A stretch of 6,389 nt of DNA from IMG/VR virus record IMGVR_UViG_2706794662_000016; one strand, given 5' to 3'. Below the pieces are notes generated by a model. The model saw only the letters and a program-made list of their open reading frames with translations. It had not been told where the DNA came from and ran no database searches. The first letter of the stretch is position 1, and each line of letters starts with the position of its first letter. The stretch comes from a virus. Lineage: Duplodnaviria; Heunggongvirae; Uroviricota; Caudoviricetes. The position numbers and the translations under genes are program-made. Shown one piece after another: positions 1 through 6,389 of the stretch.

Positions 1-50
1 GGCAGCGGGCTTGTAATGGGTTAAGTGATAACAGATGTCTGGAAATATAG
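1..50 (+). CDS. insD: IS2 transposase OrfB (InsD), C-terminal fragment truncated by window edge
   Basis: In-frame codons from position 3 to TAG at 48-50; peptide matches recalled IS2 OrfB C-terminus. Confidence 0.75.
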
Positions 51-61
51 GGGCAAATCCA
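1..61 (+). mobile_element. IS2: IS2 right terminus (IRR); body of the element lies left of the window
   Basis: Reverse complement of 1-61 reads TGGATTTGCCCCTATATTTCCAGACATCTGTTATCACTTAACC..., which I recognise as the IS2 right inverted repeat. Codons at 3-50 translate to [15 protein letters not shown]-stop, matching my recollection of the InsD/OrfB C-terminus. Recalled, not searched. Confidence 0.8.
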
Positions 62-116
62 CAACCAGTTGAGCGGATTCGCGTTTAAACTCTGCGCTAA
101 AATTTCTTTTTTTCAT
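62..116 (-). pseudogene. IS911-like orfA (transposase A) N-terminal fragment, disrupted by IS2 insertion
   Basis: Only 18 codons present before the IS2 junction at 61/62. Confidence 0.7.
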
Positions 117-188
117 TGGAGCACCTGTGTTGTTCTGAGGTGAGCATATCACCTCTGTTCAGGTGGCCAAATTCAGTGTGCCACTTCA
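62..188 (-). mobile_element. IS3-family (IS911-like) left end: terminal inverted repeat plus first 18 codons of orfA, interrupted by IS2
   Basis: Minus strand from 188 reads TGAAGTGGCACACTGAATTTGGCCACC..., an IS3-family terminus (TGAAGTGG). Complement of 114-116 is ATG, followed by [18 protein letters not shown], which matches my recollection of IS911 OrfA; the frame is cut at 61/62 by the IS2 end. Confidence 0.7.
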
Positions 189-1170: not shown

Positions 1171-1503
1171 TTAACGGGGGTCTGTGTGGTCGTTATCCTT
1201 AAGGTCAAGCGTCCATGTACGACCGAACAGTTTAAAGACAACAAGCACTCTGACGAGGACGTAGCGAAGTAGCAGGCCTGCAATCAGCCCAATACCTCCA
1301 CCAGTCCATACATCAGGTGACCCCAGCTCAGGAGGGAGATTTACCATTAGTTTTCCTTGTAAGACGCTCTCAATCGCATTCTGACACAAAAAGTACCTGA
1401 CCTTATGAGTTGACCTGAAGAGGTCGTTTAACTCGTTACAGGGCGATTGAAGAGGTCTGTGTGCAATGCAAAATATGCGACCAAATACATAGCCACGCCT
1501 CAT
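1171..1503 (-). CDS. Hypothetical small protein (110 aa) with hydrophobic C-terminal segment; alternative 58-aa product from internal ATG (complement 1345-1347)
   Basis: A minus-strand promoter lies immediately upstream, with SD GGGGAGAG 6 nt before the ATG at complement(1501-1503). The C-terminus GGGIGLIAGLLLRYVLVRVLVVF is hydrophobic. The internal Met53 has its own SD (AAGGA). The N-terminal third is encoded across repeat element A, so its true extent is uncertain. Confidence 0.5.
   Translation of the reverse strand: MRRGYVFGRIFCIAHRPLQSPCNELNDLFRSTHKVRYFLCQNAIESVLQGKLMVNLPPELGSPDVWTGGGIGLIAGLLLRYVLVRVLVVFKLFGRTWTLDLKDNDHTDPR
1362..1459 (+). repeat. Bipartite repeat element, copy A: conserved 5' arm (1362-1392) and 3' arm (1426-1459) around a variable core; arms carry inverted repeat CTCAATCGC / GCGATTGA(A)GAG
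   Basis: Near-identical to copy B in both arms (5' arm about 29 of 31 nt, 3' arm 31 of 34 nt by eye); the cores differ in sequence and length. Confidence 0.65.
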
Positions 1504-3131: not shown

Positions 3132-3455
3132 ATGAACGAATATGAATTACAGATTTTCATTGATAGCGACACTGCTATGATGGTGCAGGCTTTCGCTGAT
3201 TCCGGTGTATCAATTGACCTTGATAAATTACTAAAGCTAATGGCTGAAAACTCAGAAGAAATTGAAGACTTTATTCAGGAAATTGAAACTGGTGAACCGC
3301 GTTTTATGTTTCCTGTTACCGACTCAAACATGAAGCGTCTTATTATCGAAGAAACGAACAAATACAGCGTTAGCCCTGAAAAATATCTCAAGGCGGCTAT
3401 AGCAATTTTGTATAGCGATAATATTCTGGTGACGGATTCGAAGGTGGTGCATTAA
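3132..3455 (+). CDS. Hypothetical acidic protein (107 aa from ATG 3132); possible RHH-like C-terminal region
   Basis: SD AAGGAG at 3117-3122, 9 nt before the ATG; the track ORF begins at an upstream TTG (3099) inside repeat B. C-terminal FMFPVTDSNMKRLIIEETNKYSVSPEKYLKAAIAIL fits a strand-helix-helix pattern by eye. Confidence 0.7.
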   Translation: MNEYELQIFIDSDTAMMVQAFADSGVSIDLDKLLKLMAENSEEIEDFIQEIETGEPRFMFPVTDSNMKRLIIEETNKYSVSPEKYLKAAIAILYSDNILVTDSKVVH

Positions 3456-3520
3456 TGGAATTGGTGATTATCTGTTTTGTATTGATTGGTATGATTGCAG
3501 GTGCATCTATTAAAGTATAA
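3455..3520 (+). CDS. Candidate micro-ORF, 21-aa hydrophobic peptide (MELVIICFVLIGMIAGASIKV)
   Basis: ATG overlaps the upstream stop (TAATG at 3453-3457); SD-like AAGGTGG at 3441-3447, 7 nt upstream. Not in the ORF track (below its length cutoff). Confidence 0.3.
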   Translation: MELVIICFVLIGMIAGASIKV

Positions 3521-3544: not shown

Positions 3545-3573
3545 TTGACAAACAACCTTGAGCATGACATAAT
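3545..3573 (+). promoter_or_regulatory. Sigma70-type promoter P2 (TTGACA - 17 nt - TGaCATAAT)
   Basis: Consensus -35 at 3545-3550, 17-nt spacer, extended -10 at 3565-3573. Followed by TGTATATATGG, which also follows P1. Confidence 0.6.
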
Positions 3574-3742
3574 TGTATATATGGGGGAGAGCAATTCTCT
3601 CTTATTTTTTCTTTCAATAATCCGATGGATGGATATTCTGAGTTGGAAAGGTGCAATGCTTTTCGTCCTAGCCTTTCAGGTTGGTCTGAGAGGCTATCTC
3701 AAAAAGTCTTTGTTCATTCATTATTGAATCCTTTACAGCTTT

Positions 3743-3770
3743 GCCCTAATCATGAGTTAGGGCTTTCTTT
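3743..3770 (+). terminator. Candidate intrinsic terminator (GCCCTAA - 7-nt loop - TTAGGGC, then TTTCTTT)
   Basis: Perfect 7-bp stem at 3743-3749 and 3757-3763 followed by a U-rich tract. Confidence 0.5.
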
Positions 3771-3840
3771 AAGAGTTTTTAAACAGAGCTTTTAAAGAAA
3801 GTTTTCCTGAAACTTCGTTAACGTTATAAGCAAACCTCCA

Positions 3841-3875
3841 AAGCCCTTCACAGATTATGTTTAGGGCTTTTCTTA
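3841..3875 (+). terminator. Second, weaker hairpin paralogous to the 3743-3770 hairpin (AAGCCCT ... AGGGCTT then TTCTT)
   Basis: 7-bp stem with a 15-nt loop; shares TTAGGGCTTT(T)CTT with the first hairpin. Confidence 0.3.
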
Positions 3876-3946
3876 ATAGAGCATCTTTAATAAATCGTTA
3901 AGTCATCTTCTAAGTGTATTGGCGTTGAAGGTGCTCTATTAAGAAA
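3869..3946. repeat. 15-bp perfect inverted repeat TTTCTTAATAGAGCA (3869-3883) / TGCTCTATTAAGAAA (3932-3946) with 48-nt spacer, in the leader of the 3971 gene
   Basis: Extended base by base until the first mismatch. A second interleaved inverted repeat, CTAAGTGT (3910-3917) / ACACTTAG (3952-3959), abuts the SD GAGG at 3959-3962. Confidence 0.65.
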
Positions 3947-3970
3947 TAACCACACTTAGAGGAAATTATA

Positions 3971-4681
3971 ATGACAAACGATTTATATATTAACGGTAAA
4001 AAGGTTGATAGCTTCGGAGACTGGTCACCACAGGGTGAACATCCGCTACATACTATTCAGCGTCAAGAGCATGACAAGCGCATTGAGCTTGAGCAAGAGC
4101 TAAAGATGTCACCAAAGGTAATTTCCTTTGTGTCTCCTGAGCCTCAAGAAATGCCTGATATCTGCAAAACTGAAGCACTATTTGAGCTTGAGCGTGAATA
4201 TTACCCAGCTTTAAAATCACAGCGTCTTAGACTTGATGTCGCTTACGATGCTGTTAAGAACTTCGAAGAAACCTCGAAACCTTCAGAATATGATATTGCT
4301 TACGAGATTAAGTCAAACCCGTTTATCTATTATGAAGGAAACTTTAATGATGGTTTTGGTACAGCGATTGAAGACGTTCCTAAAGTTCTTCAAAGTATCC
4401 CTGAAGGGTTCCGGTTAATTGATGTCAGACAAGCATTAAGGGGTTCTGGTCAATTTATTCTGATGACTGATAAAACAGATGAAGAGATTCTTCAGTTAGC
4501 TGAAGCTAATTTGACTAAGCATTATTCCGGTAAACTGGATAAGTTAAAGCAAAAGCTTAAAAAAGAACTTGATACTATGAAAGAACTTGTTAGTGAATAT
4601 GAGTCGCAGAAGAAGATTGCTTTGATGGCTGATATTGAGCAGTTAACGAAGATTTCTCAGAAGTATAGCAAGGCTGTTTGA
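3971..4681 (+). CDS. Hypothetical protein (236 aa)
   Basis: ATG with SD GAGG 8 nt upstream; long ORF. No family recognised. Confidence 0.8.
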   Translation: MTNDLYINGKKVDSFGDWSPQGEHPLHTIQRQEHDKRIELEQELKMSPKVISFVSPEPQEMPDICKTEALFELEREYYPALKSQRLRLDVAYDAVKNFEETSKPSEYDIAYEIKSNPFIYYEGNFNDGFGTAIEDVPKVLQSIPEGFRLIDVRQALRGSGQFILMTDKTDEEILQLAEANLTKHYSGKLDKLKQKLKKELDTMKELVSEYESQKKIALMADIEQLTKISQKYSKAV

Positions 4682-4703: not shown

Positions 4704-4913
4704 ATGTTTGAAGAACGTTTAGAGACTATTCGGTCTGTTTGTGAAAACTTAAAGTTACAAACTAAGCCAGCCTTAAGAATTAAAAACAAACGTCAAGTTA
4801 TCACCTCACACAAACCAAAAACACGCAAGATTCCAAAGTGGTGTATTGACCGTATTCCTTCTGATGCTCAAATCATAGGTGAAACGGAATTACATTATCT
4901 TGTCCGACATTAA
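4704..4913 (+). CDS. Hypothetical small basic protein (69 aa)
   Basis: SD AGAGGTG immediately upstream of the ATG; followed by a terminator. Confidence 0.65.
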   Translation: MFEERLETIRSVCENLKLQTKPALRIKNKRQVITSHKPKTRKIPKWCIDRIPSDAQIIGETELHYLVRH

Positions 4914-4936: not shown

Positions 4937-4979
4937 GGGGAGAGATTATCGAGTGACATCGGTAGCTCTCCCTTTTTTT
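4937..4979 (+). terminator. Intrinsic terminator (GGGGAGAG ... CTCTCCC then TTTTTTT)
   Basis: 7-bp GC-rich stem at 4938-4944 and 4966-4972 followed by seven T at 4973-4979; the 21-nt loop is long. Confidence 0.6.
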
Positions 4980-5069
4980 GTATGTGTGCTACGTGAAATC
5001 TGTAAAGCTAATACCCACACTGAAAAATAGAATTTACGTACAACACGCTTAAAGAGGTGAAAAATATGA

Positions 5070-6347
5070 ATGGCACAATTTAAAGTTGATGATTTTCTGA
5101 TTGAGTTAAGTTTTAACTCTCAGAAAGTTTTAAAAGGCTTGGAAAAAGCCGAGAAACAAACGATGCAGGTAGCATCACGAATTGAGAAGCGATTGAATAA
5201 GTCGTTTAGAGTTAATCCTACGCCTTTAAATGATTCTCTCAAACTAATGGAAAGAAATGTCGATAAAACTGTTTCCAAGATTGAGCAGCGTCTTAAAAAC
5301 ACTAGAGCGTTTAAGATTAAAACTGAAATTGAGGATACTTTAAAGCCACTTAGACAACCAAGACAGCCACGAATTAGCGGAAGCAGAGCAATCACAGCAG
5401 CTTACTCAGCGAATATGAGCAAGCTTCGTGACTTTAATCCTATGCTTGAGAAGTATTTTAAAAGCCAGTATTACAGCTTAAGCAGTAAATCCAAGACACT
5501 TGGAAACGAAACTTTTAATCGTGAGTTAGCAAAGTTAAATCAGTCTCTTCGTGAAACACTTTCTAAGTTTAACAAGACCACCAGCAAAAATAATCACAGT
5601 GAAAATGCTTCAAATAGTCTGGATGTATTAGCTACGAGTGCAATCAAAGCAGGTACAGCCATTTATAGTTTTCAGACAGCCTTAGAAGCTTACAGGCGGA
5701 TTATGGAGGTTGGTCTGAAAAAAGAAGCATCACAACGAGCGGCACAATTCGTTTTAGGTGATGAAGGTGCTAAACGAGCTACAGAATTTGTTAAGAATCT
5801 TGCTGATAGTAGTGGTGTAGACCAGATTGAAACATTAAGCAGTTTTGCTAAGTTTTCCGCTGGTGCTGGTGATATGAATGCAGACCAGAAAGAATCCTTA
5901 TTTTCTAATGTGATTGGTACATCCAGATTAATGGGGCTAAGCACCGATGAAATTAACGGGATTTTAAAAGCTTTCGAGCAGATGGCATCTAAAGGAAAGA
6001 TTCAGGCTGAAGAGCTACGCGGTCAATTAGGTGACAGAATGGCAGGTGCTTTTCAGTTATTTGCCAGAAGTCTTGGGATGACTACGGAAGAATTAGACAA
6101 GGCCATGAAAGACGGTAAGATTCTTTCTAAAGATGTTCTTCCTAAAGTATCCGCTGAAATGGGAAGGATGATTGATAAAGCTGGTGGATGGGAAAAGATT
6201 ATTAACTCTACTCAGACGCAGTTAGGCCGCTTAAGTAATTCATGGAATAATAATCTGGCCTTAATGTTCGATGGTTCACAGGAAGGTTTAACAGACTTTA
6301 CAAGGTCACTGACTAATTTACTTAATTCACTAAATAGCTGCGCTTAA
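5070..6347 (+). CDS. Tape-measure-domain protein (425 aa), lambda gpH-like N-terminal region; possibly a truncated remnant
   Basis: SD AAAGAGGTG 10 nt upstream. The motif EELRGQLGDRMAGAFQLFARSLGMTTEELDKAMKDGKILSKDVLP matches the conserved phage tape-measure core as I recall it, and the N-terminus MAQFKVDDFLIELSF resembles lambda gpH MAEPVGDLVVDLSL. Domain assignment is from memory. Confidence 0.8.
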   Translation: MAQFKVDDFLIELSFNSQKVLKGLEKAEKQTMQVASRIEKRLNKSFRVNPTPLNDSLKLMERNVDKTVSKIEQRLKNTRAFKIKTEIEDTLKPLRQPRQPRISGSRAITAAYSANMSKLRDFNPMLEKYFKSQYYSLSSKSKTLGNETFNRELAKLNQSLRETLSKFNKTTSKNNHSENASNSLDVLATSAIKAGTAIYSFQTALEAYRRIMEVGLKKEASQRAAQFVLGDEGAKRATEFVKNLADSSGVDQIETLSSFAKFSAGAGDMNADQKESLFSNVIGTSRLMGLSTDEINGILKAFEQMASKGKIQAEELRGQLGDRMAGAFQLFARSLGMTTEELDKAMKDGKILSKDVLPKVSAEMGRMIDKAGGWEKIINSTQTQLGRLSNSWNNNLALMFDGSQEGLTDFTRSLTNLLNSLNSCA

Positions 6348-6389
6348 TACCGCTACACTTTTGCCAGCCCATGTTTGCCTCCGGGGAAT

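Follow-up and report, generated by a model that had tools for sequence, protein, structure and literature searches.

A truncated tape measure gene in Shigella sonnei and the family of enterobacterial islands with Felix O1-like tail genes to which it is related

The PLEs (phage-inducible chromosomal island-like elements) of Vibrio cholerae integrate by means of a large serine recombinase and are parasites of the virulent myophage ICP1 (PMC12987554). They encode their own tail chaperone, TMP (tape measure protein) and hub protein of the baseplate, which are 19-41% identical to those of ICP1 (PMC12987554), and they give rise to chimeric tails that are ~10 nm shorter and from which the phage TMP is excluded (PMC12987554, Nature 2026). 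The same study mentions TMP genes only for Vibrio PLE-like elements and some PICIs (phage-inducible chromosomal islands) of the capsid-forming type (cf-PICIs) (PMC12987554, Extended Data Fig. 10), and in a preprint the mycobacterial EPIPs are described as satellites of 11 kb that encode a serine integrase as well as a TMP (PMC12822802). Here we describe a truncated TMP gene in a stretch of DNA of 6,389 bp (IMG/VR record IMGVR_UViG_2706794662_000016; this whole stretch is called the window below), which is from Shigella sonnei, and the intact enterobacterial islands that carry orthologues of this gene. Taken as a whole, the locus is best explained as an IS630-truncated remnant of a family of PLE-like, tail-hijacking islands; from the comparisons given below we put the probability of this explanation at about 60%.

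The gene in question is an open reading frame (ORF) of 425 aa on the plus strand (5070-6347), in which an initial annotation, made from the letters of the window only, had recognised a TMP-type core. This core was recovered in the profile searches that the annotation had proposed: Pfam TMP_3 matched aa 229-396 with 76.7 bits (E 2.5e-21; curated cut-off 41 bits) and TIGR02675 scored 61.8 bits (E 5.6e-17; curated cut-off 21.35 bits). The best PHROG was phrog_4036 (E 1.7e-72), with a matched span of only positions 250-470 of the 749 in the profile, and the top match among solved structures was gp017, the tape measure of the Felixounavirus Bas63 (PDB 9ndy_F, E 3.6e-59). A lambda gpH-like N-terminus, also proposed, finds no support. 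BLASTP against gpH gave only a 16-residue central motif and nothing N-terminal; the resemblance is instead to the TMPs of Felix O1-like phages, to whose N-terminus that of the ORF is ~60-80% identical. The conserved C-terminal tip of a full-length TMP is missing from the ORF and present in the intact orthologues of E. coli. These orthologues are 682-716 aa long, in agreement with the remark that 425 aa is below the usual length of a TMP.

Alignment with uninterrupted orthologues showed that homology to the intact genes stops after ...TTCACTA at base 6332, within CACTA/GGTGG; at this junction the intact genes have the sequence CACTAGGTGG, with a CTAG site in it. The inverted repeat of IS630 begins at base 6333 with AATAGCTGCGC, and more than 800 E. 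coli records contain annotated elements of the IS630 family whose ends match bases 6326-6389. The junction partner, for which a search had been suggested, is therefore the left end of IS630 (6333-6389). Because homology ends at 6332, the last four codons of the ORF (422-425, N-S-C-A) and its TAA stop (6345-6347) are insertion sequence (IS) DNA, and 421 native codons of ~690 (5070-6332) are left, as judged by the profile, orthologue and structure-sequence matches. The rise in G + C content at the end of the window is real (0.548 at 6348-6389 and 0.385 for the whole window). The junction, placed by the initial annotation at 6348, is actually at 6332/6333, and its statement that the terminal bases remain open in frame has no meaning past an IS630-derived stop.

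The only public contig that reads through IS630 (L003) contains the pair of inverted repeats, AATAGCTGCGC... and its complement, at 6345-6365 and 7485-7505, 1.1 kb apart and enclosing a 343-aa DDE_3 transposase. Terminal inverted repeats, a TA target inside CTAG and a DDE_3 transposase are thus all present, as in other IS630 insertions in S. sonnei, and nothing is unusual here save that the far side is joined to unrelated DNA. Extension downstream gave no in-frame continuation: the contig runs from IS630 into ygjI'/ebgC/ebgA, without the rest of the TMP gene, which was therefore separated by a later rearrangement. The ygjI' junction suggests that this was an IS-mediated event, as read from a single short-read contig.

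ORF 5070-6347 is virtually certain to be a pseudogene that corresponds to the first 61% of a TMP gene of normal length, interrupted by the insertion of IS630 at CTAG/TA, and evidence against the truncation was not encountered. The initial annotation had left a choice between the 5' remnant of a gene cut by a rearrangement and a naturally short protein with a TMP domain. The interruption after codon 421 decides for the former, and a naturally short protein does not agree with the length of the intact orthologues, all of which fall within the range given above. What stands of the initial interpretation, with the gpH-like N-terminus, the junction position and the short protein removed, is the truncated remnant and its non-tail context. 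Exactly this 425-aa protein is on record for 82 contigs, under the name 'tape measure domain [Shigella sonnei]', and the 185-aa product of a neighbouring gene is identical on at least 1000 S. sonnei contigs.

DNA related to the window was found in 539 of the 5426 complete E. coli genomes, always in the chromosome and in one to five places per genome. The relatives are mostly 80-90% identical and mosaic, and members of the family occur in E. coli, Shigella, E. albertii, Salmonella and Citrobacter. One gene order is common to 20 loci, some in E. coli genomes and some in IMG/VR. The left end varies (it may hold a small resolvase of the invertase type, an HNH-AP2 endonuclease or other cargo) and is followed by ~1.4 kb without genes, a divergent transmembrane ORF, a promoter pair and an operon of ~8 small genes; then come a terminator, the TMP gene (682-716 codons), a gene for a tube initiator (TI) of 256 aa and, on the opposite strand, a recombinase gene that adjoins the attachment site. 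The recombinase is a large serine recombinase of 506 aa with Resolvase, Recombinase and Zn-ribbon domains, and among the islands there are at least three types of it, which are ~29-35% identical to each other.

Two integration sites were documented, tonB and yecE. In A0 34/86, comparison with the empty site of K-12 placed the boundaries of an 11.17-kb insert between 13-bp direct repeats (CAATGACCCTTGA), and in ECONIH4 and Ecol_517 the island splits yecE. The repeats of the A0 34/86 island (L001, 13247-13259 and 24416-24428) show integration exactly at the start codon of tonB, the codon being restored by CAATGACCCTTGA; the attL of this island has a dyad symmetry (GACTTCA...TGAAGTC). The intact relatives are discrete islands with a large serine recombinase, as is expected of a PLE-like satellite, and the window copy has lost the recombinase.

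Searches with Pfam, NCBIfam and PHROG found no capsid, portal, terminase, tube, sheath, wedge or fibre genes in the window or in the intact islands, and a complete prophage tail module, with tube, sheath, chaperone, hub and fibre neighbours, is absent from both. The genes upstream of the truncated ORF matched no tube, sheath or chaperone family, and a terminator lies before it (hairpin 4937-4972 and T7 at 4973-4979), both as had been stated beforehand. The non-tail context of the gene is therefore real, but it was not made by rearrangement, since the intact islands also have TMP and TI as their sole virion-type genes. A tailocin, an extracellular contractile injection system (eCIS) or a type VI secretion system (T6SS) was ruled out, there being no sheath, tube or baseplate wedge gene.

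The TMP and TI genes of the islands have the order of their homologues gp17 and gp18 in the virulent, Felix O1-like myophages (Ounavirinae). Bas63 gp017 can be aligned with the island TMP from end to end (E 2.6e-72), and the identity of the island TMP to the TMPs of Ounavirinae is 28-34%, with the same start methionine. For the 256-aa protein there is a match to Pfam Dit_like and a full-length alignment with gp018, the tube initiator of Bas63 (9ndy_A, E 5.6e-106); it is 68-71% identical to the product of the gene directly after the TMP gene in ~250 Felix O1-like phages. The phages that share the TI homologue are Ounavirinae, that is, 86-kb virulent myophages of Felixounavirus, Mooglevirus, Suspvirus and their relatives. 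When every island protein was compared with the whole genome of Shigella phage ESh21 by local tblastn, TMP and TI were the only matches, and their homologues are adjacent in the phage (60312-62546 and 62546-63352). The likeness to the gp17-gp18 pair of Bas63, Felix O1 and Sf14 (PDB 9NDY; PMC12609058) comprises both genes, their order, and the N-terminus, central domain and tip of the TMP. In the phages, the two genes abut and lie after chaperone genes and before hub, spike and wedge genes, whereas in the islands each has an upstream cassette of ~75 nt of its own, and the pair lies between small genes of no assigned function and the recombinase. Judged by its sequence, the TMP/TI pair is taken from Felix O1-like lytic phages. 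The islands thus have, like a PLE, their own TMP and a baseplate-proximal protein, both with homologues in a virulent myophage. An own tail chaperone was not found, as no island protein matched the chaperone genes of ESh21 and a fold search with the 236-aa protein of the operon gave generic coiled-coil matches only.

Conservation between island and phage is confined to three regions of the TMP: residues 1-45 (58-84% identity), the central domain (55-72% identity) and the C-terminal tip, the last dozen residues of which read (E/Q)(D/A)xL(L/I)SS(S/A)(Y/F)PE(D/E). Outside these regions identity to the phage is below ~30% and the proteins are very different between islands, where overall TMP identity ranges from 41 to 95%. 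For both TMP and TI the dN/dS between islands is 0.11-0.29, which shows purifying selection on the two genes. In Bas63, the C-terminal 25 residues of the TMP contact the hub and the puncture apparatus, and the hub, which is threefold, is fitted to the sixfold tube by a hexamer of the tube initiator (PMC12609058). Those parts of the island proteins that should meet partners encoded by the phage are thus retained. Compared with the phage TMP (742-744 residues), those of the islands are smaller by 26-62 residues, and therefore tails built on them are predicted to be ~4-9 nm shorter.

These data bear on the possibility that the locus is an ordinary decayed prophage, in which the TMP gene would be left over from the full tail cluster of a temperate phage after erosion by deletions and IS. 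Such regions are included among the viral contigs of IMG/VR, IS are abundant in S. sonnei, and three of them border the window. However, all examined E. coli copies have the same compact layout of 11-17 kb, bounded by attachment sites and with the recombinase right after TI, and their TMP and TI genes are intact and under purifying selection. The sole phage relatives are virulent Ounavirinae, in which neither the recombinase nor any other island gene was found, and neither the E. coli genomes nor IMG/VR yielded a larger relative that has capsid or tube genes. We consider a decayed prophage very unlikely.

The ~75-nt cassette precedes both the TMP and the TI gene in all islands. In the window it lies at 4989-5052 (plus strand), with the inverted-repeat ends CTACGTGAAAT ... 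TTTACGTAC, followed by CACGCTTAA. Its general form has the arms CTACGTGAAAT ... TTT(T/C)ACGTAG, a -10-like hexamer but no -35, and the end CACGCTTAA(C)AGAG. The cassette at 4989-5052 is likely the regulated promoter of the TMP gene, and its sequence can be read as that of an activator-dependent promoter. A third inverted repeat with the same arms is present near the left end of the A0 34/86 island (L001, 13570-13654). In this island the copies of the cassette, with the ends CTACGTGAAAT / TTTCACGTAG, are at 19688 and 21921. Several variants of the spacer occur, interchangeably before either gene. Near-identical cassettes that bracket the TMP gene may, from their arrangement, promote the exchange of TMP alleles.

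In the window, the island has decayed at both ends. Bases 1-61, for which records of phages and plasmids contain ends of IS2 that match at 100%, are an IS2 end inserted in a copy of IS911. Of the latter an end fragment with the start of OrfA is present at 58-188 on the minus strand (ORF 21-152, minus strand), which is a 99% match to the annotated IS911 of phage Sf6. Homology to the E. coli islands begins at 189, the left part of the island being cut off by the IS911 fragment. The remnant is bounded by three different IS, with IS2 nested in IS911 at the left and IS630 at the right. Another public contig with the identical truncated TMP (L006, 6774-8593) retains the yciI-side left end of the island and carries an insertion of the IS3 family between genes, in the region of a candidate small RNA (sRNA). 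The remnant is therefore present in more than one IS-decayed state.

The window copy is without the C-terminal 270 residues of the TMP (including the docking tip), the TI gene, the recombinase and the left end, and is therefore unable to move or to complete tails. It is best regarded as a decaying remnant that is fixed in S. sonnei. A new role for the 425-aa product, as a functional short protein with a TMP domain, might be argued from the identity of the allele in many S. sonnei assemblies and from the retention of the cassette, the Shine-Dalgarno sequence and the conserved N-terminal and central domains. Such a role is extremely unlikely: the C-terminus and stop are IS630 sequence, the hub-docking tip and the partner TI gene are lacking, and uniformity across a lineage of many near-identical assemblies is expected for a neutral remnant as well. 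A residual dominant-negative activity of the product is conceivable, but nothing supports it. In itself the window copy is ordinary, a gene inactivated by an insertion sequence during the decay of the S. sonnei genome; its family context, a common and apparently undescribed island, is not ordinary.

The closest documented precedent for the island is the Vibrio PLE (PLE1-11), with its module of tail chaperone (TAC), TMP and BhuB. Both are small chromosomal islands with a large serine recombinase. Both have their own TMP and one baseplate-proximal protein that are divergent homologues of those of a virulent myophage, and in both the TMP is somewhat shorter than that of the phage. PLEs carry the conserved regulatory sRNA SviR, and domesticated nucleases are weapons in the conflict between PLE and ICP1. 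The HNH-type nucleases, small membrane protein and candidate sRNA of the enterobacterial islands may be compared with NixI/CapR, LidI and SviR, respectively. The two differ in their hosts and phages, the present islands having Enterobacteriaceae as host and Ounavirinae, not ICP1, as putative helper. The second tail gene encodes a gp18-type tube initiator (~70% identity), whereas that of the PLE encodes the hub protein BhuB. A tail chaperone, RepA/ori, TcaP or another PLE function was not recognised in the island, and the island is 11 kb long whereas the PLE is 18 kb.

EPIPs (PMC12822802) and some cf-PICIs are likewise small elements that carry a TMP, and EPIPs also share the size of ~11 kb and the serine integrase. 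In contrast to the island, which has none, they are reported with genes for head assembly or packaging (those of a capsid, a scaffold, adaptors or a small terminase), and the reported EPIP helper, HerbertWM, is a prophage, unlike the putative virulent helper of the island. Markers of P4-like satellites, PICIs and cf-PICIs (tyrosine integrase/AlpA, primase-replicase, Sid/Psu/Delta, small terminase, capsid, portal and protease) gave no match in Pfam, NCBIfam or PHROG. A literature search, which was not exhaustive, found no account of a satellite of Felix O1 or other Ounavirinae, or of an island with a serine recombinase and a TMP; the enterobacterial family is apparently undescribed so far.

Based on these comparisons, the following course of events can be proposed for the intact islands. 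Infection by a Felix O1-like phage would switch on TMP and TI via the shared cassette without -35. The tip of the TMP, together with TI, would then dock onto the hub and spike of the phage, and the docked proteins would nucleate the polymerisation of tube and sheath from phage subunits, which would result in chimeric tails that are ~4-9 nm shorter. As with PLE and ICP1, such tails might serve the transfer of the island, spoil the phage progeny, or both. Induction, tail substitution, packaging and transfer are what we infer from the gene content. That the island acts at least on the assembly of Ounavirinae tails, be it as a satellite or as a defence, is reasonably probable. It is a more tentative proposal, with somewhat less than even chances, that we are dealing with a true satellite of Ounavirinae, without head genes, which makes chimeric tails by its own TMP and TI and restricts its helper; it would then be the enterobacterial counterpart of the Vibrio PLE, and the S. 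sonnei window would be its fossil.

Several points weigh against a tail-hijacking island. There is no experiment or sequence evidence of its induction, excision, replication, packaging or transfer by any phage, and among the small genes we could recognise neither a replication initiator nor a small terminase, nor a protein that remodels the capsid, nor a tail chaperone. The mapped IMG/VR loci are without a circular or concatemeric junction, and the host flanks that were detected are chromosomal. The cassette is absent from phage ESh21 and was found in full in IMG/VR only in island copies, other matches being due to chance. In addition, a genome of 11 kb in a capsid of the 86-kb type would need concatemer packaging or resizing of the capsid, and there is evidence for neither.

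A pure anti-phage island would fit the conserved docking regions equally well. In that case TMP and TI would be dominant-negative decoys that give defective Felix O1-like tails, by which the host population is protected while the island itself is not packaged. The missing packaging and replication genes agree with this, the diversity of the TMP between islands (41-95% identity) suggests an arms race, and tail assembly is a documented target of island-borne defences, such as PLE11 Rta and other tail-targeting defences (PMC12987554). However, no defence model in PADLOC-DB v2 matched any of ten island proteins. A decoy need not keep a working length, whereas that of the TMP is held within narrow limits and the whole protein is under purifying selection. 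The own recombinases and the several integration sites imply horizontal movement, for which some vehicle is needed. We therefore regard a purely defensive island as unlikely, though less so than a decayed prophage.

The explanation of a PLE-like, tail-hijacking island family would have some consequences. Felix O1-like phages find wide use in the typing of Salmonella and in biocontrol or therapy directed at E. coli, Shigella and Salmonella. If the explanation is true, an island that hijacks or spoils the tails of these phages and is carried by about a tenth of the complete E. coli genomes would be an unrecognised determinant of the host range of these phages and of the failure of phage therapy. 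Piracy of the tail module, demonstrated so far only for the Vibrio PLEs, would not be peculiar to Vibrio, and a tractable E. coli system would be available for asking why satellites replace the tape measure. A TMP and TI pair from lytic phages is the signature that was recently shown to mark tail-hijacking satellites in Vibrio, and the island may, by analogy, be a new phage satellite.

The remaining features of the window lie upstream of the TMP gene. An ORF of 110 aa with one transmembrane helix (1171-1503, minus strand) is divergent from the operon of small genes; its C-terminal ~60 aa are conserved in three island loci (L001, L011 and L015) and its N-terminal part is variable, with indels. 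Between it and the operon are back-to-back promoters of the sigma-70 type (1526-1590), namely TTAACA-18-TATAAT (minus strand) and TTGACA-17-TAATAT (plus strand). An inverted repeat of 20 nt (1536-1555 and 1603-1622) flanks them. In its arrangement, the divergent ORF with the promoter pair resembles a genetic switch.

The operon, on the plus strand, starts with the gene of the 185-aa protein mentioned above (1642-2199), which has no assigned function; the protein had no match in Pfam, NCBIfam, PHROGs or PADLOC, and its structure model (pLDDT 48) was too poor for use. It is followed by a gene of 92 aa (2200-2478), with only sub-threshold matches in Pfam and NCBIfam, and by that of a small HNH-type endonuclease of 90 aa (2481-2753), for which HNH_3 was found below the Pfam cut-off (E 7.5e-5) and more clearly in the orthologue from locus L011 (E 1.8e-8). 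The islands encode one or two phage-type HNH endonucleases (HNH_3, one with an AP2 domain; phrog_99), for instance at 8192-8716 and 11341-11628 in L011; none of them matches the genome of phage ESh21. A gene of 107 aa without assigned function (3132-3455, with the ATG start as called in public assemblies) is overlapped at its stop codon (TAATG) by the start of a hydrophobic mini-ORF of 21 aa, MELVIICFVLIGMIAGASIKV (3455-3520). Each island has such a hydrophobic mini-ORF, of 21-25 aa, although its sequence differs.

The candidate sRNA (3545-3771, plus strand) has a length of ~190 nt and lies in a conserved gap of 515 nt between the 107-aa and the 236-aa gene. It has an invariant promoter (3545-3573; TTGACA-17-CATAAT with an extended -10 TG), a 5' hairpin (3581-3605) in which pairing is kept through two-sided changes in four pairs, and a terminator (3743-3763; GCCCTAA...TTAGGGC and a T run). 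A second terminator-like hairpin with a loop of variable length, AAAGCCCT...AGGGCTTT, is found at 3841-3966 (plus strand), after which two nested inverted repeats follow, CTTAATAGAGCA/TGCTCTATTAAG and TCTAAGTGT/ACACTTAGA. One of these sequesters the Shine-Dalgarno sequence of the 236-aa gene (3971-4681, plus strand), which suggests that this gene is under translational control.

Hundreds of NCBI records give the 236-aa protein the name 'transposase', a label that lacks support; the protein has no match in Pfam, NCBIfam or PHROG. Its model (pLDDT 79.6) shows a long coiled-coil hairpin and a small alpha/beta domain, with fold matches to generic coiled coils only. The family is narrow, with 18 clusters at 50% identity among 1.84 billion proteins in an exhaustive HMMER search, and tblastn against 50,697 phage records gave no match. 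A scan of genome contigs with this protein found one locus, the exact back-translated patterns being too strict to gauge its taxonomic spread. The last gene of the operon encodes 69 aa (4704-4913, plus strand), without assigned function or a match in Pfam, NCBIfam or PHROG. The operon is closed by the intrinsic terminator that precedes the TMP gene (4937-4979, plus strand; -23.3 kcal/mol, z = -2.9), which is conserved in other islands.

Finally, the stretch from 189 to 1641 is a conserved non-coding part of the island, in which no coding sequence is annotated in the E. coli islands. An Rfam scan of the whole window at a permissive threshold gave no match, and RNA folding of the most conserved non-coding block (430-650) showed no excess of structure (z = +0.2). 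The stretch could be an origin, a packaging site or other cis-acting DNA. It contains a 95-nt tandem repeat (858-940 and 952-1035) and short repeats of the GGTCGNTTAAGA type (762-849 and 1415-1431). These ~1.45 kb without genes are the most conserved part of the mosaic island, with 93-98% identity at 439-638 and 789-1138.

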